A stretch of 64,000 nucleotides of DNA from a virus (Duplodnaviria > Heunggongvirae > Uroviricota > Caudoviricetes), in the IMG/VR virus record IMGVR_UViG_2565956719_000002. One strand, 5' to 3'. Position numbers and translations under genes: made by a program. Of this stretch, positions 1,229 to 52,336 are shown one piece after another. The stretch's first letter is position 1. Every line of letters starts with the position of its first letter. Under the pieces are notes generated by a model. The model did not search any database and had not been told where the DNA came from. It saw only the letters and a list, made by a program, of their open reading frames with translations.

Positions 1229-2344
1229 TTATTCAGCCGCCACCGGTTTTAACAAGCCAGCATCGAGCAGTTTACGCGTCAACCACTGCTGGCCTTTACC
1301 CGTTAATTGAGGCGTCAACCGTATCTGGTAGCCATCTTCATCATCCAGCACCACTTCTTTCACCGTGAAATACCCCGCGTTGATGTACTGCTGGAACGGC
1401 ACATTTTTACGTCCACCGGACGCTATCAGGATGCCGTTCTCCCGTAACCAGGCAAACAGCGCATTTTGTTTAAGTCCAACGACCTTTGCAAAATTCCCAA
1501 TCAGGATCCCTTTAGCTACTGATACCCGGTCGGCAAAATCGACTTTAGGAGCGGCGGCCACCAGCTGCTGATTTAGCTGGTGGGCTTTCTGTTCCAGAAG
1601 CTGCTTTTGTTCAGCCAGTTCGGCAGCCAGGCGCAGAGCTTCTGGAAGCGTCTGGGGGATTGCAACCGGTTGCTGTTCTTTTTGCCGGAAGTAGCTGTCT
1701 TCCAGTTTTTCAAAGAATGCCCATGCCTGATCGGTTTCGAGCATTTTAGCGTGGCGGGCTGCGCCGCGTTCCGTCCAGAGGATGAGTGAGCGGGCTTTAG
1801 GAGAGATAGGATTTTGTGAGTTACTTAAAGTCACCCGCAAATTGTTCAAATCATCTCCAATAACTTTATAGAAATGCTTACCTTCACAAAAACGTTCAGC
1901 ATTACGGGAAAAGTTCTTCTTGATGTTATCCGCATCTGTCCCATACCCCTTAGCAAGGATCTTAGTTGTCACTACACGCACTCCCTGCCACTCTAGAACG
2001 GGAATTTCATCCGGCTGACTTTGAACAACCACCAGTTCTGATTCCTGAACTAAAGGTGTATTAATTTTTTCAGATTTAACGTTAGTAGCTTTCATTCTGT
2101 GTGCCTCCTTGCGTGTTTCGGCTGCGACGGTTGCGTAATTCAGATGCCCCTGTTCGAGCAGGTATTCACGGATATCAGACAGCAGGATACGGTGAACAGC
2201 GTTCTTGTCCTTTCTCCGGTAAAGTTGTTTGGTGATCATGAAGTAGTTGGCAATAACGCCTGGTATATCCCTGGTACTGATACAGGCAGTGTGCTGTTCA
2301 ATTGCCTCGATCATCTCTTCACGGGTAACTAACGATGTTCTCAT
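1229..2344 (-). CDS. ant: antirepressor Ant (Bro-N-like central domain plus KilAC C-terminal domain)
   Basis: C-terminal KilAC-type region (AIPQTLPEALRLAAELAEQ ... GKGQQWLTRKLLDAG); central Bro-N/ORF6N-like segment; start overlaps the stop of the upstream 73-aa ORF. Confidence 0.8.
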   Translation of the reverse strand: MRTSLVTREEMIEAIEQHTACISTRDIPGVIANYFMITKQLYRRKDKNAVHRILLSDIREYLLEQGHLNYATVAAETRKEAHRMKATNVKSEKINTPLVQESELVVVQSQPDEIPVLEWQGVRVVTTKILAKGYGTDADNIKKNFSRNAERFCEGKHFYKVIGDDLNNLRVTLSNSQNPISPKARSLILWTERGAARHAKMLETDQAWAFFEKLEDSYFRQKEQQPVAIPQTLPEALRLAAELAEQKQLLEQKAHQLNQQLVAAAPKVDFADRVSVAKGILIGNFAKVVGLKQNALFAWLRENGILIASGGRKNVPFQQYINAGYFTVKEVVLDDEDGYQIRLTPQLTGKGQQWLTRKLLDAGLLKPVAAE

Positions 2345-2562
2345 AGTCCCTCCTGAGCAGAAGCGTTAACAGGGAGGCACCAGTAACTGAGAGAATTGCG
2401 TGAATCAGTGGAAAAACGGGCAGAGAAAATACATGGGGCGTCAGGAAGCTGAGAGCGGGCCTCATCTTCTGTCGGTGCAATAACGAAGTGATAGTGACGT
2501 TTTTGGCAGGAGTAAAAGCGCCAGATAAATACAGGATGAGTTGGGGTAGGGATAGTAGCCAT
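2341..2562 (-). CDS. icd: Icd-like small protein (73 aa) translationally coupled to ant
   Basis: 73-aa ORF with TAAGGAGG RBS; paralogue at 52333-52554 shares ...HYHFVIA.TEDEARSQLPD.PCIF.ARFST.SRN.LSYW...; position matches P1 icd upstream of ant. Confidence 0.45.
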   Translation of the reverse strand: MATIPTPTHPVFIWRFYSCQKRHYHFVIAPTEDEARSQLPDAPCIFSARFSTDSRNSLSYWCLPVNASAQEGL

Positions 2563-2639
2563 ATTGGCAGCCTCCTTAGACGTTGGTATGTAACCACCGC
2601 AGAAGAGACCAATCTTGCTGGCGGTGGACTGTACGGAGT

Positions 2640-2720
2640 TGGCCTTACTGGCGTCCAAGGTAACCAGCCTACCCGAAGGTAGCCCCATACAGCCCACCAT
2701 TGTAGAGGTGTGCGTGTACG
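2640..2720 (-). ncRNA. c4: candidate c4-like antisense/structured RNA (approximate bounds)
   Basis: UUCG-tetraloop hairpin (2669-2683) flanked by a block conserved with 52640-52690; stem sequences differ but stay complementary between the two copies. Confidence 0.3.
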
Positions 2721-2881
2721 CCGATACAAAAAAAAGACGCGAGCGGCGTCTGTATCGCCTTAGACTTAAGCGGGAGGCCAATCCCGGCACCCGTTTTAAT
2801 GAGGTGCCTGATAAGCATAAACCGAAAATGCCTCAAGGCGCAAGAGGTCAGGTTCAATGTAACATCGGCAGTCAAAAAACA

Positions 2882-2898
2882 CAATTTATTAGAGCAAG
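2882..2898 (-). promoter_or_regulatory. C1 operator-like site (CTTGCTCTAATAAATTG, 15/17)
   Basis: motif match immediately upstream (minus sense) of the c4/icd/ant module. Confidence 0.5.
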
Positions 2899-7277: not shown

Positions 7278-7457
7278 TTATCTGCTGCCCGGCATTCTCT
7301 GTTTAAGCACAACCATTTCCTGACGGCATAACACAGCAATAGCTGTCCTGGCACCAATTTGCTTACCAACCAGGTATTGCTTTACCTTGCGGCGACTCAC
7401 GCCATCAAGAAGCATCTTTAACGCTTCACGGGACAACTTGTTGTATTTGCGTGCCAT
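7278..7457 (-). CDS. small basic putative DNA-binding protein (59 aa from MARKYNK...)
   Basis: ATG 7 nt past the doc stop; basic HTH-like segment; start chosen at internal Met. Confidence 0.35.
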   Translation of the reverse strand: MARKYNKLSREALKMLLDGVSRRKVKQYLVGKQIGARTAIAVLCRQEMVVLKQRMPGSR

Positions 7458-7461
7458 TAAT

Positions 7462-7842
7462 CTACTCCGCAGAACCATACAATCTACGTAACGTGTCGGC
7501 GACAGAAGATACAGATATCTCGCCAGTCGCAGCGCCTACGGTAAGGTCTGCCAGTTCAGGTGAATCAAATACCTGCACCCCGTTACGGCGTAGAAATAGC
7601 AGCGCACTGTTTAGCGCGGTACGCTTATTGGCATCATTGAATATATGCCCTCTCGCTGTAGCCACCAGGTAGGTGGCAGAGACTTCGAAAAGGTCGGTGA
7701 TCTCTTCGTAGGCAACTCTGGCCTGAACTCTCCCGATAATGGCCTCTGCCCTACCCGGATCAGACATTCCCGGCAGGCCGCCGTAGCGGCTTATATTCGC
7801 ATCATGAAGCGCAATAAGTTCTTCCGGTGATATATGCCTCAT
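7462..7842 (-). CDS. doc: Doc toxin (Fic/Doc family)
   Basis: 126-aa ORF matching P1 Doc as I recall it, coupled to phd. Confidence 0.9.
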
Positions 7843-8063
7843 TATCGGTTAACCAGTTCCTTGTTGGTGGAGTCCAGGGTGTCAAACAGGGATGCAAATT
7901 CAGCATCCAGCGCCGCTTTTTTGTAGGCTTCGAAAGTAGCCTTGCTGACAATTACTGCTGGCTCACGGCCTCTGCGGGTGATTTCAACCTCTTCCCCGGC
8001 TTCAACATTGTTGAGCACTTCAGAAAGGTTGCCACGCGCGGTACGGAAGTTAATGGATTGCAT
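7842..8063 (-). CDS. phd: Phd antitoxin (73 aa)
   Basis: [18 protein letters not shown]... Phd/YefM family; stop overlaps the doc start. Confidence 0.9.
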
Positions 8064-8135: not shown

Positions 8136-8525
8136 TTAAATAACCGGACAATCATCAAACTCCCCACTTCTGGCATCATTGATGACATGAGTGATCACAC
8201 CAAAAACAGCATTACTGCCCGTGTATCCATCGTCATCTACTGGTAACGCCTCTTTCTTCCCGGTGCTTAAGTCCTCCAGGTGCTGGCGCGGATACTTCCT
8301 GTATCTCTTTATGCGATATTCACCCTCCATAGCGCACACAAGCAGAGAACCATCAACCGGAGTAAGCGAGGAATCAACCACCAGCAAAGCACCCTGCAAT
8401 ATTCCCTCACGGTGATGGCTATCAGCTGCCCGCATGAAGTAGGTCGCTGAAGGATGTCTAATTATCTGCTGATCAAGAGAAATTCGGCTTTCAACATAAT
8501 CCGCCGCAGGAGAAGGGAAGCCCAT
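8136..8525 (-). CDS. humD: UmuD'-like protein HumD (S24 peptidase fold, begins at the UmuD cleavage-site equivalent)
   Basis: GFPSPAADYVE...HPSATYF...; Ser and Lys catalytic positions appear conserved; LexA box directly upstream. Confidence 0.85.
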   Translation of the reverse strand: MGFPSPAADYVESRISLDQQIIRHPSATYFMRAADSHHREGILQGALLVVDSSLTPVDGSLLVCAMEGEYRIKRYRKYPRQHLEDLSTGKKEALPVDDDGYTGSNAVFGVITHVINDARSGEFDDCPVI

Positions 8526-8543
8526 AGCGTTTTACCTCAATGA

Positions 8544-8563
8544 TACTGTTTATTCATACAGTA
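8544..8563 (-). promoter_or_regulatory. LexA (SOS) box TACTGTATGAATAAACAGTA
   Basis: CTGT-N8-ACAG palindrome about 20 bp upstream of the humD start. Confidence 0.8.
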
Positions 8564-8648
8564 TACATTGAAAAGGCATAGTTTGTGAAAGCGGGGTTTG
8601 TAGGCGCGCCACGCTGGGGGCTAATCACATTTCTCCCCCATCTTGCCG

Positions 8649-8900
8649 TTATTTTTTTGGTGCATCCTCGTTCTGATACACCGGATCGCTCCCTTTTGGC
8701 AACTGGAGGCTTAACTGCCGGTAGTGCCGTAGCCGTTCCATGAAATAGGCGCGCAGGTTTTCCGGTTGCTCACGGGCCACCTGCTCTGCAATCACAGGTA
8801 TATTCAGCCGTTCTTTGTAAGCAACGCCGCTGGCGGCAAGGTCTACGTTCACCTTGTCTCGCTCTTCCTGGCTTTTAGCTGCTATATTTCGATCTGACAC
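8649..8900 (-). CDS. hot: Hot, homologue of DNA polymerase III theta subunit (HolE)
   Basis: [36 protein letters not shown] resembles E. coli HolE. Confidence 0.8.
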
Positions 8901-8932: not shown

Positions 8933-9283
8933 ATGCACAATAACGTTCTCAATGTTAGCCGTTCAATTCAGACAATCAGAGACTGCACCAGTGTGGTGGC
9001 ATCAATCCCATTGCGGAACAGCATAGACGAACTGCAAATTCGTGTATTGAATCCGAATCAGGCTAATAAGCAATTGCGCTTTATTTTGACGCTGAAAAGT
9101 GAAACAGAGGGGATAAAGCACAGCGTAAAAGTGTTTTCTGAGGCCATTCTGCTTAATGGGAAGCTCCGGCATCTGGTAAGGCCAGAACGTCAATATCCTG
9201 ACGTCCTGGCGCGTGAAAAAGACCTTCTTTCTGAAGTTCAGGATAGGGTGATCGATTTCGTCAAATGCTATCCCCTGCATTGA
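8933..9283 (+). CDS. hypothetical protein (116 aa)
   Basis: only plus-strand ORF in a minus-strand block; weak RBS. Confidence 0.3.
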   Translation: MHNNVLNVSRSIQTIRDCTSVVASIPLRNSIDELQIRVLNPNQANKQLRFILTLKSETEGIKHSVKVFSEAILLNGKLRHLVRPERQYPDVLAREKDLLSEVQDRVIDFVKCYPLH

Positions 9284-9549
9284 GGGCAGGTGTTCCCTTC
9301 CGCAAAGTAGGGAAAATTGCTATCAAGTTCATCACACCATCTGCGATGGTCGTAGCACCAAAACGCCTCCCACGGTGCACGGAAATACTTCATCCACCAG
9401 GACACTCGATCAGGTATATCTGCTGGTGGCAGTTCTTCTGGCAATAATTTGCCTGATAATTCCCTTTCCGCCCGCGACAGCATTTTTTTGAGGCTCGCGT
9501 TCTCTTTTTCAAGCTCATCTACGCGCACCTGTAATTCAGCTTTCGTTGG
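9268..9549 (-). CDS. hypothetical coiled-coil protein (start at MPTKAELQ...)
   Basis: ORF with internal Met start overlapping upstream gene end by 14 nt. Confidence 0.4.
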   Translation of the reverse strand, partial: PTKAELQVRVDELEKENASLKKMLSRAERELSGKLLPEELPPADIPDRVSWWMKYFRAPWEAFWCYDHRRWCDELDSNFPYFAEGNTCPQCRG

Positions 9550-10186
9550 CATGGTCCACCTCATGCTTTTCAGCCACCAGCGGCAATAAAGCCCTGGCCA
9601 TCTTATGAACCAATAGTGCATCAATAATGCCAAGCGTATGCCCCGGCTTAATGTTTAATGCCGCCTCAAGGTGACACCTTTCCAGGTCACTTTTCTCGGC
9701 TTGTTTATGATGATCTGGTGTAATAACGTCGCCCAAAACACGGCTAATTCTTTCTCGTAATTGCTGGGTGCCAGCACACTTGATCGCTGTATCGTGGAGA
9801 CGGTTAACCAGTTCGCGATAAACATGCGGCTTAATGCGGATACGTTCACCGGTGACGCCCTTTCCTGGCGCTGGCACCGAACTATCCGGAATATCCGGAT
9901 AGTTGCCAGCCTCGTAAGCTACCCACAGCCAGTGCATGAATGTTTCAGTGGACACACAACCACAGTCCACATCGATTTTTCCGCGTTGCTGTTCCAGCCA
10001 ATGCTCAAAATTCAATCTACACGTATTACTTTCATGTTGCTCTTTTTGTCTCAAGGCCAGCATCTGCTGGGCTATTTCCAATACTTCATCTGCCGTATAT
10101 CCAGCACCGTGACCATACATTTCGATACGGGAAATAATCTCTGATATGCGCTCTTCAGTGATTCTGGTCATTTCTTTTTGCGCCAT
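9536..10186 (-). CDS. hypothetical protein (216 aa)
   Basis: long ORF in co-directional array. Confidence 0.5.
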   Translation of the reverse strand: MAQKEMTRITEERISEIISRIEMYGHGAGYTADEVLEIAQQMLALRQKEQHESNTCRLNFEHWLEQQRGKIDVDCGCVSTETFMHWLWVAYEAGNYPDIPDSSVPAPGKGVTGERIRIKPHVYRELVNRLHDTAIKCAGTQQLRERISRVLGDVITPDHHKQAEKSDLERCHLEAALNIKPGHTLGIIDALLVHKMARALLPLVAEKHEVDHANES

Positions 10187-11407: not shown

Positions 11408-11943
11408 TTCGCCTCCTGCGGCGGTTCTGGTAGCGGCATCCAGAACAAGGCGTTCCCTAACCACGATAAAGTGCCGTCGCTCAACTCCACGTATTCCCCT
11501 TGTACCTGTCCTGCCATATACTCGCCGTGCTTTGAATAAATTAAAATCCAATCATCTTGAGGGGGCATTCGCTCACTACAGCTTATCCAGCCATCCGGAG
11601 TTACCGGAGAGTTGCCATTTACATCGAAGTTTGGCTCTGCGTCCTGAACCAGGAGGATGTAACCATTCTTGGCTGTATCAAGTTCTAACGCCTCGGTGAC
11701 GGTGCCGAAATAGCGATTACCTAAATCAGCATCACAAGTGCTTACATCAATGGAAACTTCCATGCCTTCGATTAATTCTGGTAAGTTGTAAGTTTGGTTT
11801 ACAGGCTCTGCTTCCAGCGATGCCAGAGCAATTCGTGCCAGTTCTTCCGCTTCTTCTGCTGGCAGTACAACGTTGCTACCCGGTCCGTATGTTTCGCGCC
11901 ACTGCTTGATTGTCAGCAGTCGCTCTTTGGTAATAGTGATCAT
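11404..11943 (-). CDS. DUF551-like protein
   Basis: C-terminal PDGWISCSERMPPQDDWILIY region; N-terminus shared with 12818-13180. Confidence 0.5.
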   Translation of the reverse strand: MITITKERLLTIKQWRETYGPGSNVVLPAEEAEELARIALASLEAEPVNQTYNLPELIEGMEVSIDVSTCDADLGNRYFGTVTEALELDTAKNGYILLVQDAEPNFDVNGNSPVTPDGWISCSERMPPQDDWILIYSKHGEYMAGQVQGEYVELSDGTLSWLGNALFWMPLPEPPQEAK

Positions 11944-12455
11944 GCCGCGTTTCCTTCTTTCTTATTAACAATTACACCGTCATATATTTCATTAAGGTGC
12001 CCTCTCAACTCCATGCGCCTTAATGCAGATAACATGTAATCGCATTCAACCTGCTTATTTCCAGTAAATGGCTTATCGTCAGGATTACCCCAACAGCAAT
12101 TACCCTTGGGCCACCCATGTACTTTCCGTACTCTTCCGTTAACAACGTGAAGTAATCCCCAGCCAGGTGGTAAATCCTCAACTGAAATAATTCCCGGCTC
12201 ACTAATAAAGAATCGCCAGTCGCCCATTCCAAGAGATGGATTTTTACGAAAACGCTTTTTTCTATCTGCCAACAAGTCAGCACGAGAACACTTCGCCTCT
12301 ATCAGGCATGATGCTGAATTTCTGAATCCCATAGCATCTGGCTGTTCTCCGGTACTGGTTACAGCTATAAAGCGGTCATGAAAACAAACCTTGAACCCGT
12401 TACGCTTAAGGAACTTATACGCAATCTGACAGAGTTCGCGGTGTGTTAACGCCAT
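11940..12455 (-). CDS. putative PD-(D/E)xK nuclease-like protein (171 aa)
   Basis: PDAMGF ... LIEAKCS motif; AAGGAGAG RBS; start at MALTHREL. Confidence 0.4.
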   Translation of the reverse strand: MALTHRELCQIAYKFLKRNGFKVCFHDRFIAVTSTGEQPDAMGFRNSASCLIEAKCSRADLLADRKKRFRKNPSLGMGDWRFFISEPGIISVEDLPPGWGLLHVVNGRVRKVHGWPKGNCCWGNPDDKPFTGNKQVECDYMLSALRRMELRGHLNEIYDGVIVNKKEGNAA

Positions 12456-12456
12456 A

Positions 12457-12645
12457 TCACTCTCCTTTAGTGCGCAAGTGGTTTTTCCAGCGGTTTTGCG
12501 CCGCGCTGGGCTTTTTGCAAAAACCACAATCCATCATCCCGTAATATTTCATCAACCCCATCCGTCGGTTGCTGAGTCTCACCCACTGCCAGACGCCAGG
12601 AGCGTTTCTACGAACTAACAGAATCTTTGCTTTACGGTTTTTCAT
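12457..12645 (-). CDS. small basic Cys-containing protein (62 aa)
   Basis: AGGAGA RBS; stop overlaps downstream start (TGATATGG). Confidence 0.3.
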   Translation of the reverse strand: MKNRKAKILLVRRNAPGVWQWVRLSNRRMGLMKYYGMMDCGFCKKPSAAQNRWKNHLRTKGE

Positions 12646-12817
12646 CGCTTTGCTCTCCTGCGTCTCTTTGCTGCTCGTCGTGCCGCTGCAATACCGGTAT
12701 GGCGGCGCTTTGGTGCCGGGATGATGTTGTCAGCCATCAGGACATGTGGCTTTGCAATTAGCGCAGAAGCCCAAAAACGAGTCGGGTACGGTAACAAGCC
12801 GAAAAATGCCACACGCA

Positions 12818-13180
12818 TTACTCACCTCCCTTACCCTGAAGCATGGCAGCGCGGCAGGCGTTCCAGCCATCAACATAATCAAACGTATTGCTATCGTCTG
12901 GCTCGATTTCATCCGGCACTACCGGCTCTGGTTGGATAGTGACGTTGGCAAAGGCAGCACGCAAACCGGCCTTAATTTCCTCTACTTCATCAGCGCCTAG
13001 CGATGAATCTGACAATGCGTGATGGAATGCGTAAGCCATGTCGTCGTTTACTGCAACCGGTTCGGCTTCCAGTGATGCCAGCGCAATTCGTGCCAGTTCC
13101 ATTTGTTCGCCACGGGTAAGCCCGTTATCAAGCGGATTTTTAATGAATAATTCGATACGTTCTTTGGTAATAGTGGTCAT
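12818..13180 (-). CDS. hypothetical protein sharing N-terminal module with the DUF551-like protein
   Basis: MTTITKER...ELARIALASLEAEPV shared with 11404-11943. Confidence 0.45.
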   Translation of the reverse strand: MTTITKERIELFIKNPLDNGLTRGEQMELARIALASLEAEPVAVNDDMAYAFHHALSDSSLGADEVEEIKAGLRAAFANVTIQPEPVVPDEIEPDDSNTFDYVDGWNACRAAMLQGKGGE

Positions 13181-13386
13181 TTGTTAATCCTCAAAACTTT
13201 ATGCCCGGGCGCAAAAGCACGTGTTTTGTCTTTACTTATTCGCCACCCGTCTTTACGGGCCTCTTTTGCACAACCAGACCATGACGTACCGATATACTCA
13301 CCGAAGTCTGGCACTGGATATACACCTTCCGTACACTGGCGGCAGTCACAATAGAGATGCATGGTGTAACTTGCAGCGATAGCCAT
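13177..13386 (-). CDS. small Cys-rich protein (69 aa)
   Basis: TGATATGG coupling with upstream gene; start at internal Met. Confidence 0.35.
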   Translation of the reverse strand: MAIAASYTMHLYCDCRQCTEGVYPVPDFGEYIGTSWSGCAKEARKDGWRISKDKTRAFAPGHKVLRINK

Positions 13387-13387
13387 A

Positions 13388-13831
13388 TCACTCTCCTTTG
13401 ATGCGAATGCCTGTTGCAATGCTGTTTATGATGCTGTCAGTGCATGGGGTAGAAAGCTGGGCATCTCCAGCAATTTTCATGACATCAACATCTGCATATC
13501 GAATACCGAGGTGTATCAGACCGGCTATACCTGACTTAAGCCGAGCATTTTCCATAAACAGATCCTTTGCCCGCTGTTTTTCTGCCTCAAGCTCAACGCG
13601 CAACTTCCCTACCGTTAGCGCAATATCCTCGTTCTCCTGGTCGCGGGATTTGATGTATTGCTGGTTTCTTTCCCGTTCATCCAACAATACCAGCGCGATA
13701 TCTGGCGAAAAGTGCTTCATAAAATCGTTAAGCGCATTAATTCGCTGATCGAAAGGCATTACAGGTGCTTCACCAGCAATTTTTGTTTTTTCAGCGATTT
13801 CACGAAGCTTTTGATAATCAATCTTGCTCAC
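13388..13831 (-). CDS. Ea22/Ead-like lambdoid early-region protein
   Basis: N-terminal MSKIDYQKLREIAEK module and coiled coil, paralogous to neighbours. Confidence 0.45.
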   Translation of the reverse strand: MSKIDYQKLREIAEKTKIAGEAPVMPFDQRINALNDFMKHFSPDIALVLLDERERNQQYIKSRDQENEDIALTVGKLRVELEAEKQRAKDLFMENARLKSGIAGLIHLGIRYADVDVMKIAGDAQLSTPCTDSIINSIATGIRIKGE

Positions 13832-14562
13832 TGGTTGCCTCCTTTGCGAAGCTGGGCAGCAAAGTCAACTAACCACTCAGTCATTTCAACCTTCCCTACC
13901 AAGTCTGAACCAGGGTGCATACAGCAATCACTCTGCGCCGCTTTGAAATCCTTATACTCATATTCTTGGGCCACCAGATTTTTTGCAGCTTCTATAGCAG
14001 CATCCACCCCCTGCGCCCGGACTTCAGCCAAGAAAGCGTCGGTGGCTGACATATTTCCTGTTGCCTTCATGGCCTTCAAAATAACCAGAACGCCATCTCG
14101 CCCAACCACCTCAGCGATAACCTCGGTGTTGTCGCCAACAACATCGCAGAATGCCTGAACTGCCTTACGAGCCAGCTCATTCTCCACTGCCAGCGCCGTG
14201 CGATTACCCTCCAGCTCTGCAATGCGCTGTTTTGCGGCATCCAGTTCAATCGACAATTTTTCCAACTGCTCTTGATGCTTCTTGTATTCCTGATATGCGT
14301 GCCAAGACTGACCTTTGCGCACACTATCAGTGATATCAGTAATCTGTTCTGGTGTTAGCGTGGTCAGTGGCTGTGATGGGAAAATAAGCACTTTCCCGGA
14401 ATCCCAATCAAAACCAGCGTGAATTGACTGAACCTCAACTGAAGGTGTTGAACCAATGCTGCCAGGCGAATGAACAACGATTGTTACATCCATATCGCGA
14501 CGATGGCTGTGGTTGTTGGACAAAATACGATTCACCAACTCAGAAAATTTGGAAAATTTCAT
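13828..14562 (-). CDS. Ea22/Ead-like protein
   Basis: coiled-coil; C-terminus ...LRKGGNQ shared with paralogues. Confidence 0.45.
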   Translation of the reverse strand: MKFSKFSELVNRILSNNHSHRRDMDVTIVVHSPGSIGSTPSVEVQSIHAGFDWDSGKVLIFPSQPLTTLTPEQITDITDSVRKGQSWHAYQEYKKHQEQLEKLSIELDAAKQRIAELEGNRTALAVENELARKAVQAFCDVVGDNTEVIAEVVGRDGVLVILKAMKATGNMSATDAFLAEVRAQGVDAAIEAAKNLVAQEYEYKDFKAAQSDCCMHPGSDLVGKVEMTEWLVDFAAQLRKGGNQ

Positions 14563-14882
14563 GCTGATTCCCCTTTCTCTGCTCTCTCCTGTCGGAACAT
14601 CACTATCATCAGGTCGCCTTTTGTCGCTATCCTGGCTGTTGTACCTGGTTCAATGCGGCTAAGCTCAAATGCGTCATAGAACGCTTCTAATGCCTTCTGG
14701 CGTAGTTCCTGTTTGCGCCGTTTTTTCCACTGTTTTAGGAAAATGGAACCCAGCCATCGCCATGTACGGGACATGATGTAAAGCCAACCGAGAAGTGCCA
14801 GACCGGTATTTAGGAGCGTATCGATCGTTATTGTCGTGTCGATATTCACTGGCTGCTTCCTTTGCGAATCTGTTCCGCCCAT
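14559..14882 (-). CDS. small putative membrane protein (start uncertain)
   Basis: hydrophobic segment; overlaps upstream gene so true start is probably internal. Confidence 0.3.
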   Translation of the reverse strand: MGGTDSQRKQPVNIDTTITIDTLLNTGLALLGWLYIMSRTWRWLGSIFLKQWKKRRKQELRQKALEAFYDAFELSRIEPGTTARIATKGDLMIVMFRQERAEKGESA

Positions 14883-15583
14883 TCTTCAAGGGATTTCTCC
14901 GCATATTCACCAGACAGGCCATCAATCGGATGCGCTTCATTAGCCAACTCTTCTTTCGCTGACAAAATCATGCGTGTAACGTCGAAAACTTCACGCAAAG
15001 ACTTATTGATAAATCCGTGATTGAACGCAGCAGCAAGACGGCTGGCGGTATAGTTAATCCCCTCGTTGCGTGCTTCCGCACGAATTTCAGCAAGAAAAGC
15101 ATCGGTAGCTGGAGTTTCGCTGTGGTGTAGGGCATCGTTGATAATCATTGCAGCAACACCAGCCTGCCCTGCATCCGTGACCGACACATGCTCAAGAGTT
15201 ACGGCCATTGCGTGTTTCAGCCCGGCGTTCTCTGCCACCAGCGCCGCGAGCTTAGTCTCAAGCGGTGCTATTCGGCACATAGCATCAATATTTGTGTCCT
15301 CCAGGCGCTTAATTTCACCAAGTAGCGCCAGTGCAACCTTTGGGTTGAATGCGGCAACATAACGAGCGTTGTTCTCTGCGTTTTTCAGCCCATCAAAGCC
15401 GGTCCATTTGATAACATCTTCACATCGTTTATCACCGGGCGTATGCACCGCATACGTACCAGTACCCGGCGAAATAAATGCGACCCATTCGCCCTGTGTT
15501 GCCTGTTTTGCTATCTCACGCAGTGCCCGGTAATTAATTTTGCTCACTGGCTGCCTCCTTTGCGGAGTTGCGCTTCGATGCAC
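14846..15583 (-). CDS. Ea22/Ead-like protein
   Basis: SKINYRALREIAK N-terminal module, ...IRKGSSQ C-terminus; start probably internal GTG near 15543. Confidence 0.45.
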   Translation of the reverse strand: MHRSATPQRRQPVSKINYRALREIAKQATQGEWVAFISPGTGTYAVHTPGDKRCEDVIKWTGFDGLKNAENNARYVAAFNPKVALALLGEIKRLEDTNIDAMCRIAPLETKLAALVAENAGLKHAMAVTLEHVSVTDAGQAGVAAMIINDALHHSETPATDAFLAEIRAEARNEGINYTASRLAAAFNHGFINKSLREVFDVTRMILSAKEELANEAHPIDGLSGEYAEKSLEEWAEQIRKGSSQ

Positions 15584-15783
15584 GAAAAAAAAGACTCCCG
15601 AGTATGACTGTTAAGAGCTGGTGCGAACGCCGCGTTAAGAACGGCAGCATCACAGCCGTCATCAATATAGAGCGCAATTTTTTTCTCCAGGCGCGCTTTG
15701 GCTTCCTGCAACTGCATACCCCGGCACGCACGCGGGATATAATCAGCAATTTGAGCGATAGCTTTTTCGTTCTGTTTAAACAT
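15544..15783 (-). CDS. hypothetical protein (79 aa) with the ...LRKGGSQ C-terminal junction
   Basis: shares C-terminal junction with the Ea22-like paralogues. Confidence 0.4.
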   Translation of the reverse strand: MFKQNEKAIAQIADYIPRACRGMQLQEAKARLEKKIALYIDDGCDAAVLNAAFAPALNSHTRESFFSCIEAQLRKGGSQ

Positions 15784-15979
15784 GCTTCACCTCGATAGGC
15801 TTGATGGTGTCTAACAGCAGTCGACGGCGCGTATTTTCTGCAAAGTGGCGGCGTCCGGTATCTTTGTGGTAAAACTCATTTTTGCCGACGACCCACATCC
15901 GCTCTGTTTGGTGCAGTTTTTTTACCTGCGGACCGTCTTTGGTGATCACGGTGCCGGTATGGGTTTTTACGATTGTCAT
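15776..15979 (-). CDS. hypothetical protein (67 aa)
   Basis: coupled ORF. Confidence 0.35.
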   Translation of the reverse strand: MTIVKTHTGTVITKDGPQVKKLHQTERMWVVGKNEFYHKDTGRRHFAENTRRRLLLDTIKPIEVKHV

Positions 15980-16062
15980 GCCACTACCTATTCGAACAGA
16001 TGAACGAGACAGGCTGATGCTCGTCCACCTGAAAAACTGACGATTTGATGCATACTCACGGT

Positions 16063-16791
16063 TTATTCCTGAATGCGCTTAAACTCGATTACCCACACCC
16101 AGGGATTAGCGTTCCAGCTTTCTTCACCATAGATGGATTCCCACAGGCGCTGGAACGCAACCTTGGCCATTGCGAAATCCCCCTTGGGAGTAAGGAATGT
16201 TCCCGGGTGATCAGGAAGCAAACTTCCAGCAGGCGGAACGCCCTCAGCCCTTGCATCGCATTCGCTGATATCGTTCAACCGTTCAACGCGCACGTTGGTA
16301 ATTTCCAACAGAATGCGTGATGCCCATCGCGGCATGTGAATTGATGGACGCCACCCACCATCAAACTTTTCATTCACAGTGTGAGGTTTCCAGTCGGCAT
16401 CATCGGGTATCGACCATAAGCCGTAATCACCAGGTTTTTGCTCGCAACTGGCCCGATAAATCCTTGCTGCGTTCTTCTCATCGCCACGACAAAGGTTGTC
16501 GTTCCAGTCCACACTGCAACCATCCTCATTGCCTAATATCGCCCATGTTTCACGAACCCAAATTCGATCGCCGACGATACCAAAGGGGCAATTGAAAACA
16601 CTGCTTACACCATCAGCCCCGTACCACTGAAAACCTGCACCAATTTCCCTAACCATCACTGGTGCTTCTGGACCAACTTCCGCAGGCTGATTTTTCATTA
16701 TCCGCCGCGTCTGCGTTTTCCTTCCTTCGAGGATGGCTCGGACCATCTCATCGTTGAAAATCATGCCGCGCTCTTTCACTTCGCCTTTCAT
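16063..16791 (-). CDS. ASCH domain protein (242 aa)
   Basis: N-terminal MIFNDEMVRAILEGRKTQTRR (GxKxxxxR). Confidence 0.5.
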   Translation of the reverse strand: MKGEVKERGMIFNDEMVRAILEGRKTQTRRIMKNQPAEVGPEAPVMVREIGAGFQWYGADGVSSVFNCPFGIVGDRIWVRETWAILGNEDGCSVDWNDNLCRGDEKNAARIYRASCEQKPGDYGLWSIPDDADWKPHTVNEKFDGGWRPSIHMPRWASRILLEITNVRVERLNDISECDARAEGVPPAGSLLPDHPGTFLTPKGDFAMAKVAFQRLWESIYGEESWNANPWVWVIEFKRIQE

Positions 16792-50327: not shown

Positions 50328-51128
50328 TTAGCGCTTAGCCGCGACAGGTACCAGCACACCAGCATCAAGCAATCGCTTCATCAGCCACTGCTGACCTTTG
50401 CCGGTTATACGAGTCGTGAAAGAAATCCTGCTTCCATTGCTTGTATCGATCACGGTTTCTTTGAGGGTGAAGTACCCACGGGATATGTATTCTTGTTTGG
50501 GGACGTTCCTGCGTTCACCGGTTGCGATCAGAATTCCGTTATCACGCAACCAGGTGAAGAGATAGTTTTGGCCCAGGCCGAGCACTTTGGCATAGTTGCC
50601 GATTAGAACCCCGCTGGCGGTAGCAACGCGTTCGGCGAATTCGACTTTAGGTGCATCCATAAGCATTTTTTGCTCCAGCCGTTGCTTTTGCTCTGCCAGG
50701 TCGGCAGCCAAACGGAGAGCTTCAGGGAGACTCTGCGGAATAGCAGGTTGTAATCTTCCGGCTCGATAGTCGATAAATGTCTGGTTTACCTTCAGCCGAA
50801 ACGCGGGAGAAATCCAGCCTGCGTACTCCACAGCGAGCAATTCATGGGCAAAAGTGCCGCCGCCACGGCCTTCGAACGAAACTATGCAATTCTGCATAGT
50901 TTCTTTTTCAAGCTCTTCGATGAGCTGTTTGGCTGACAGCGTTCTTAGCCATTGAGCTGGCGCTTTATGGGCACCGAGTCCGCTCGCTCTGTGTAGAGCA
51001 TTAAGGTTGTAACGGCCAGCGCGGTCGGTCGTAATTTCAACACCACAAATAACAGGCAGAGTGGTTGAAGGATCGACATTTTGATGAAGGTTTGATATAT
51101 TCATATCCGCATTGAATGTTTGTTGCAT
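50328..51128 (-). CDS. kilA: KilA (KilA-N plus KilAC domains, 266 aa)
   Basis: C-terminal region paralogous to the Ant KilAC domains; 266 aa as in P1 KilA. Confidence 0.8.
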   Translation of the reverse strand: MQQTFNADMNISNLHQNVDPSTTLPVICGVEITTDRAGRYNLNALHRASGLGAHKAPAQWLRTLSAKQLIEELEKETMQNCIVSFEGRGGGTFAHELLAVEYAGWISPAFRLKVNQTFIDYRAGRLQPAIPQSLPEALRLAADLAEQKQRLEQKMLMDAPKVEFAERVATASGVLIGNYAKVLGLGQNYLFTWLRDNGILIATGERRNVPKQEYISRGYFTLKETVIDTSNGSRISFTTRITGKGQQWLMKRLLDAGVLVPVAAKR

Positions 51129-51292: not shown

Positions 51293-52336
51293 TTAACCTA
51301 TTGCTACTGGTTTTAACAAACCAGCATCAAGTAGCTTGCGAGTTAACCACTGCTGGCCTTTACCCGTTAATTGGGGCGTCAGCCGTATCTGGTAGCCATT
51401 TTCATCATCCAGTACCACTTCTTTCACCGTGAAATACCCGGCGTTGATGTACTGTTGGCGCGGTACGTTTTTGCGCGCACCAAAAGCCATGAGAATGCCG
51501 TTCTGGCGCAACCATGAGAAAAGGGCGTTTTGCTTAAGTCCAACGACCTTTGCAAAGTTCCCGATCAGGATTCCATTGGCCACTGATACCCGGTCGGCAA
51601 AATCGACTTTAGGGGCTGCGGCCACCAGCTGTTGTTCCAACTGCATTTTCTGTTCTGCTAACTCGGCAGCCAGGCGTAGGGCTTCTGGTAATGTCTGGGG
51701 GATCGATGGGGTAGGTGAGTTTGCCTGCTGCAATTCTTCCAGTTTGTCGATCAGCGAACGGCGGACGGCTTTTGATTCGCGTGCGGCGACTCGCAGGGCT
51801 TGTTTGTAGGTCATGGTTATGACAACCATAGGCGTACCGCCACCTGGCGGCACGGTTGCACTTTTTGTGTAACCGTCCTCACCTTCTAATTCGTCGAGTA
51901 TTTTTTCGATGAATTTGTTGTTCCGAACCTCTGGTTCCCCACATAACTTACGCGCTTCATTGACCATCTTTAACAGTGTCAGGCTGTCGATTGTGTCTCC
52001 GGTGTTGGGGATGATATTCACGGCTGGTGCTGGCGTAGCTGACGTAACAGGTGCTGTTTTTTCAACATTCAAATTATTACCGGTCATTCTATGTGCCTCC
52101 TTTCTCATTTCTGCTGCCACTGTTGCGTAACGTAGACGTCCTTGTTCAATCAAATAATCCCTGATCTCGGCTATCAGTAGCTTGTTGATCACAGCCTTAT
52201 CTGTTCGGGTATAAAAACGTCTGGTTATCATGAAATAGTTGGCAATTGCGCCGGGGATCTCCCGTGTCGGCATACAGGCAGTATGCAGGGCGATCGCTTC
52301 GGCTATGTCATTACGGGTGACGAGAGGTTTTTTCAT
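51293..52336 (-). CDS. ant: antirepressor Ant, second copy (347 aa)
   Basis: N- and C-terminal thirds about 80-90% identical to 1229-2344; different central domain. Confidence 0.8.
   Translation of the reverse strand: MKKPLVTRNDIAEAIALHTACMPTREIPGAIANYFMITRRFYTRTDKAVINKLLIAEIRDYLIEQGRLRYATVAAEMRKEAHRMTGNNLNVEKTAPVTSATPAPAVNIIPNTGDTIDSLTLLKMVNEARKLCGEPEVRNNKFIEKILDELEGEDGYTKSATVPPGGGTPMVVITMTYKQALRVAARESKAVRRSLIDKLEELQQANSPTPSIPQTLPEALRLAAELAEQKMQLEQQLVAAAPKVDFADRVSVANGILIGNFAKVVGLKQNALFSWLRQNGILMAFGARKNVPRQQYINAGYFTVKEVVLDDENGYQIRLTPQLTGKGQQWLTRKLLDAGLLKPVAIG

Follow-up and report, generated by a model that had tools for sequence, protein, structure and literature searches.

In E. coli, UmuD' is the already cleaved, active accessory subunit of Pol V, and the RecA-mediated cleavage of host UmuD is a slow and late checkpoint step. 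HumD of phage P1, the closest described counterpart of the gene reported here, reportedly dimerises, interacts with UmuC and with RecA filaments, and is natively expressed at a low level. The P1 RefSeq record carries a note on humD stating that it 'functionally complements E. coli UmuD'', and complementation of UmuD' by P1 HumD is also mentioned, with McLenigan et al. 1999 (J Bacteriol 181:7005) as the source, in a passage of PMC7092418. The humD-phd-doc cluster is conserved in P1-like phage-plasmids, humD being a LexA-regulated SOS gene in these elements, which also spread antibiotic-resistance genes (PMC9603915). A CRISPRi screen found humD to be non-essential for lytic growth of P1 (PMC10695390). 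The humD gene itself, the truncation, the LexA site, and the lack of a umuC partner are already known, having been reported for P1 in 1999-2004 and incorporated into the annotation models of NCBI.

The window, i.e., the whole stretch of 64,000 nucleotides that was analysed, represents a phage-plasmid of the P1 family, with RCS47 as its closest relative. It was collinear with P1-family genomes, and the DNA identity along the 1.6-kb humD locus reached 98.9% with RCS47 and about 95% with P1, with P7, D6, and SJ46 among the other matches. At the protein level HumD was 100% identical to its counterpart in vB_EcoM-813R1, 99% to that of P7 and 98% to that of P1. This last value, together with a full-length match to the NCBIfam model NF051876.1, supported the name humD given to the gene by the initial annotation of this DNA. 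That annotation had covered positions 8136-8563, which correspond exactly to the humD ORF plus the LexA box, and had left unstated the strand, which is the minus one. The features of the locus are collected in Table 1.

Table 1. Location of the features of the humD locus in the window and of the paired genes in the loci used for comparison.
Feature	Position	Strand	Basis
doc, toxin gene	7462..7842	minus	PF02661 Fic/DOC, 38 bits
phd, antitoxin gene, downstream of humD	7842..8063	minus	PF02604, 49.7 bits; start = ATG matching P1 Phd
humD CDS, pre-truncated UmuD' homologue, 129 aa plus stop	8136..8525	minus	ORF list
HumD residues 120-129, C-terminal tail	8139..8168	minus	family alignment
Codon of HumD residue 36, UmuD Ser60 equivalent	8418..8420	minus	family alignment
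In-frame TAA, three codons 5' of humD ATG	8532..8534	minus	translation of 8136-8702
Shine-Dalgarno-like GAGG, 9 nt 5' of humD ATG	8535..8538	minus	direct reading of sequence
LexA (SOS) box TACTGTATGAATAAACAGTA, predicted	8544..8563	minus	17/20 vs consensus TACTGTATATATATACAGTA
Sigma-70 promoter-like site, TTCACA-18 nt-TATACT	8560..8589	minus	consensus scan, 10/12
hot, DNA polymerase III theta subunit homologue, immediately upstream of humD	8649..8900	minus	PF06440, 113.9 bits
humD homologue/dinI pairs, loci L004-L011	5430..6390		
humD homologue/dinI pair, locus L013 (HK140)	1910..2890		
humD homologue/dinI pair, locus L014 (phiKO2)	2181..2884		

Other parts of the window were also compared with known elements. 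A segment of about 5 kb (11617..16700) was not collinear with RCS47 and contained accessory genes of lambdoid / Stx-phage type, including two Ead/Ea22-like genes, DUF551, and DUF4752; these genes explain the many matches obtained with Stx phages, and the segment falls in a region that is highly variable among P1-like phage-plasmids (PMC9603915). An antirepressor-like gene of 371 aa with ORF6N and ANT/KilAC domains was located on the minus strand (1229..2344) between pacB and c1, as is 'ant' in RCS47, and two further antirepressor genes with KilAC domains were found at 50328..51128 and 51293..52336. Beyond hot, the intervals 8933..9283 (plus strand) and 9268..10186 (minus strand) contained three ORFs of 116, 121, and 216 aa without a Pfam family, standing in for the upfO-upfN-upfM-pmgV block of P1; RCS47 lists a hypothetical gene as the counterpart of the 116-aa ORF, and for the 216-aa ORF its annotation gives a putative morphogenetic protein.

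The start codon of humD was an ATG (8523..8525, minus strand), and the translated product began with MGFPSPAADYVESRISLDQQ, its start being M-GFPSPAADYVE. The best matches of HumD among solved structures were UmuD' (1umu_A, E = 4.5e-23, and 1i4v_A) and full-length UmuD (8gmt_B), Gly2 of HumD being aligned to residue 1 of UmuD' in 1umu_A and to residue 25 of UmuD in 8gmt_B. The ORF does begin just past the cleavage site of UmuD, as initially noted, with Gly2 of HumD corresponding to Gly25 of UmuD. The cleavable N-terminal arm with the Cys24-Gly25 site, which defines UmuD proper, was absent, and the start at the first residue of UmuD' was that of the HumD family, in which 103 of the best-scoring 120 listed cluster representatives started with MGFPSP. 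The minus-strand translation of 8136-8702 read ...SLR*NAMGFPSP, and the in-frame TAA within it rules out a longer N-terminus. The same codon excluded an upstream in-frame start restoring the N-terminus of UmuD, which had been named beforehand as the finding that would overturn the proposed truncation. No resemblance to the first 24 residues of UmuD was detected in any of the three frames upstream of humD. On the gene strand the sequence ahead of humD was TACTGTATGAATAAACAGTA-tcattGAGGtaaaacgct-ATG, and the GAGG in this region was also conserved in P1, P7, and RCS47.

Membership of the product in the different families was evaluated with profile models. HumD matched Peptidase_S24 (PF00717) with 35.9 bits, above the gathering threshold of 23.3 for this Peptidase S24 / LexA-like superfamily. 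It was also recognized by the equivalog model NF051876.1, 'HumD family translesion DNA polymerase', with 220.3 bits vs. a cut-off of 120 and coverage of model positions 1-129 out of 129, whereas the canonical UmuD model NF007621.2 gave 87 bits, below its cut-off of 110. A protein search retrieved 603 relatives at E ≤ 1e-5; most of the best 120 listed were 128-129 aa long, many of them were already named 'HumD family' by NCBI/UniRef, and they came from Escherichia, Citrobacter, Enterobacter, Salmonella, Kluyvera, and Klebsiella. An AlphaFold2 model built from a 30-sequence alignment of close relatives only had a mean pLDDT of 51 and was set aside as too poor.

The alignment of HumD with UmuD contained a single one-residue gap, after Ala34 of HumD, so that Ser36 corresponds to Ser60 of UmuD and Lys73 to Lys97. 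The Ser/Lys dyad of UmuD proper was consequently present in HumD according to this alignment; the residue facing Lys73 in 8gmt_B was Ala, which is what a non-cleavable K97A construct should have. The comparison with UmuD that the initial annotation had called for thus revealed both the N-terminal truncation and the two conserved positions. A start just past the Cys24/Gly25 cleavage site, which could not be extended upstream, and the retention of Ser and Lys bore out the earlier proposal of a pre-activated protein and supported the conclusion that the product is a pre-truncated analogue of UmuD'.

A LexA operator ahead of the gene, as in other members of the HumD family, was present at sequence level in the form of the predicted 17/20 box (Table 1), which ended 18 nt ahead of the humD ATG; the distance had been given before as about 20 bp. 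The box had also been described as perfect, which holds for its outer arms, TACTGT and ACAGTA, but not for its center, where three A/T positions differed from the consensus. It was unique in the 64-kb window at three or fewer mismatches to TACTGTATATATATACAGTA, and none of 100 shuffles gave matches. The bare core CTGT-N8-ACAG constitutes weaker evidence, since it appeared twice in the window vs. 0.58 expected; the other core (32907..32922, CTGTCGCGGCTAACAG) has a G+C-rich spacer, matches the LexA consensus poorly, and is probably a chance match. A LexA box has been reported at the coi promoter of P1 (PMC4713147). No second box of this kind was found in the window, in which the one upstream of humD was the only CTG-N10-CAG 20-mer scoring at least 13/20; to judge from the collinearity with RCS47, the coi promoter is probably at the left edge of the window or outside it. 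LexA binding sites are annotated (protein_bind) at the homologous position in the P1 and P7 records, and LexA-box-like sites scoring 16-18/20 were located upstream of the humD homologues of N15, HK140, phiKO2, and Citrobacter and Salmonella prophages; conservation of the box covers six other elements whose homologues are about 70% identical.

The promoter-like site TTCACA-18-TATACT was the sole one detected between positions 7400 and 9300. Its -10 hexamer (8560..8565) overlapped the LexA box by four bases on its 5' side, which is the usual arrangement for repression by LexA, and we infer that this site may be the humD promoter. The hexamer was TATACT in the window, P7, and RCS47, and TGTACT in P1, and the box itself (ATGAATAA) departed from its P1 version (ATAAATGA) in two positions of the center. 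The locus also differed from that of P1 with regard to lxr, a divergent P1 gene of 573 bp ('LexA regulated function') placed between humD and hot, which was absent both here and in RCS47 (window 8526..8648 compared with P1 2627..3379, locus L001). In the absence of lxr, only 123 bp separate humD from hot, which precedes it in the same orientation as it does in RCS47, and humD would be the single gene served by the LexA box; for the same reason the 'predicted PhumD' annotated in P1, which is inside lxr, has no counterpart in the window. With PhumD absent, the promoter-like site overlapping the LexA box is the obvious local candidate for driving humD. The scan revealed no terminator between hot and humD, and read-through from the hot promoter is thus possible.

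Downstream of humD, the two genes phd and doc were identified on the same strand through PF02604 and PF02661, in accordance with the initial annotation; both are annotated as such in P1, P7, and RCS47, and hot is annotated in RCS47 and P1. The absence of a umuC partner was likewise borne out, given that none of the 29 ORFs of at least 250 aa in the window displayed an IMS / Y-family polymerase domain in the Pfam scan, and umuC was also missing from the collinear annotations of P1 and RCS47. The gene is therefore an orphan, carried by a phage without an adjacent umuC as is characteristic of the HumD family, and not part of the umuC operon in which UmuD proper is encoded, with phd and doc following it instead.

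The best explanation for these observations, to which we assign a probability of roughly 0.9, is that the gene is the humD of a P1-family phage-plasmid and codes for a 129-aa counterpart of UmuD'. The mechanism proposed coincides with the one already published. According to this model, in an undamaged lysogen host LexA would sit on the box over the -10 hexamer and keep humD off. Upon DNA damage, active RecA would promote the self-cleavage of LexA and humD would be transcribed; its product, having neither the 24-residue arm nor the Cys-Gly site, would skip the RecA-mediated self-cleavage. A dimer of HumD would then join host UmuC to form a Pol V-like translesion polymerase, the host protein being the expected partner because the phage lacks umuC. 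By analogy, the protein could replace UmuD' in UmuC-dependent SOS mutagenesis, as reported for the 98%-identical P1 HumD. Nothing spoke against the identity of the gene. A physiological benefit to the phage is a less certain part of the model; humD was non-essential for the lytic growth of P1.

Other explanations were weighed against this one. Some homologues are longer in the databases (137-223 aa), as would be expected if the short form were an artefact and a true upstream start gave a cleavable full-length UmuD, or if humD were the decaying remnant of a umuDC operon. We give practically no credence to this explanation, since the in-frame TAA lies three codons upstream and the upstream frames contain no UmuD-like N-terminus, whereas the long entries consist of unrelated N-terminal extensions joined to an internal MGFPSP (TGFPSP in one of them). 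Such entries were attributed to over-called starts or to the fusion of the gene with a small ORF that precedes it in locus L004. In addition, the length of 128-129 aa was maintained across genera and the dN/dS of humD with respect to the P1, Citrobacter, and Salmonella copies was 0.04-0.14, thus indicating a maintained gene under purifying selection and not a remnant. The conservation of Ser36 and Lys73 at the positions of UmuD Ser60 and Lys97, the equivalent of Lys97 being 97% conserved in the family, could reflect a still active S24 Ser/Lys protease that acts in trans on another protein, such as host UmuD, LexA, or a phage repressor, and in a dimer of UmuD one subunit can indeed be cleaved by the other. 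Such an activity is very improbable in view of the nucleophile position, occupied by Ser in 63, Thr in 39, and Ala in one of 103 family representatives, with Thr in N15, HK140, and phiKO2, and in view of the surroundings of the nucleophile, where the G-D-S-M motif of UmuD is replaced by x-S/T-H-[FYH]-R-E in the family. Furthermore, UmuD' does not require the catalytic Ser for translesion synthesis. This pattern suggests that proteolysis is probably dispensable in the HumD family.

It is also conceivable, although unlikely, that HumD acts mainly by modulating how the host responds to damage, with mutagenesis as a side effect. It might titrate UmuC/UmuD, reduce the recombination mediated by RecA, or change which polymerases gain access to stalled forks, to the advantage of the plasmid prophage in replication or survival. 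The dispensability of humD for lytic growth (PMC10695390) is in line with this role, as are its position next to hot, whose product likewise mimics a subunit of the host replisome, and the divergent arrangement, around a shared LexA box, of humD homologues and homologues of dinI, whose product is a modulator of the RecA filament, in phiKO2, HK140, and Citrobacter and Salmonella prophages. A further point in its favour is a C-terminal extension that is conserved in the family and missing from UmuD. Against it, published complementation shows that HumD can do the job of UmuD' with UmuC (P1 record note and a passage of PMC7092418), and in any case modulation and translesion synthesis are not mutually exclusive.

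The extension deserves separate comment. Alignments with the PDB structures and with the UmuD model ended at HumD residues 115-118, so residues from about 117 to 129 extend beyond UmuD. The last ten residues (120-129), SGEFDDCPVI, belong to a strongly conserved acidic stretch with the family form SGEFDDCPV[IM], in which E122, F123, D124, D125, C126, P127, and V128 were each at least 91% conserved. We take this tail to resemble the acidic C-terminal tip of SSB (DFDDDIPF). It could be a short interaction motif through which HumD would bind a partner, or compete at stalled forks, in a way not open to UmuD'; this proposal, a lead from sequence conservation, is quite doubtful. The variation among Ser, Thr, and Ala at the old nucleophile would fit a family that has traded proteolysis for a tail-based role. 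To compare the tail with SSB, the window was searched for a phage SSB gene whose product ends in DDIPF, and none was found. No discussion of the tail was found in the literature searched, which comprised sources other than the primary P1 papers (McLenigan 1999; Lobocka 2004).

The reading of the gene as a humD coding for a UmuD' counterpart confirms the window as a P1-family phage-plasmid with an intact humD-phd-doc cluster that is predicted to be SOS-inducible. HumD illustrates how a mobile element can bypass the host checkpoint that RecA-mediated cleavage imposes on error-prone DNA synthesis.

Compared with known systems, the protein was closest to P1 HumD (P1_gp103, YP_006569.1), from which it differed by two substitutions, with the same length of 129 aa, the same M-GFPSP start, and the same C-terminal tail; the position of the LexA box and the presence of phd-doc immediately downstream were also shared with the P1 locus. 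With E. coli UmuD/UmuD' (1umu, 1i4v, 8gmt) it shared the S24 fold family, about 44% identity, and, by prediction, regulation by LexA. HumD differed from UmuD in lacking the 24-residue arm and the Cys-Gly site, and hence a RecA-dependent activation step, in a one-residue deletion before the Ser, in a longer loop at residues 93-106, in the C-terminal extension (about 117-129), and in the location of its gene outside any umuC operon. The homologues of N15 (gp26), phiKO2 (gp23), HK140 (gp28), and enterobacterial prophages, of 127-129 aa and 62-75% identical, likewise presented the pre-truncated start, an upstream LexA box, and no nearby umuC. Ser occupied the nucleophile position in the HumD of the window, in contrast with Thr in N15, HK140, and phiKO2. 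Among the prophages compared, lambdoid, N15-like, and P2-like ones contained a humD homologue/dinI pair around a shared LexA-box-like site, whereas P1-type elements were devoid of dinI; a lexA site between both genes is already annotated in the phiKO2 record, and no dinI is annotated alongside gp26 in N15. The humD homologues of phiKO2, HK140, and the Citrobacter and Salmonella prophages diverge from dinI, while the neighbours of humD in the window are hot and phd-doc.
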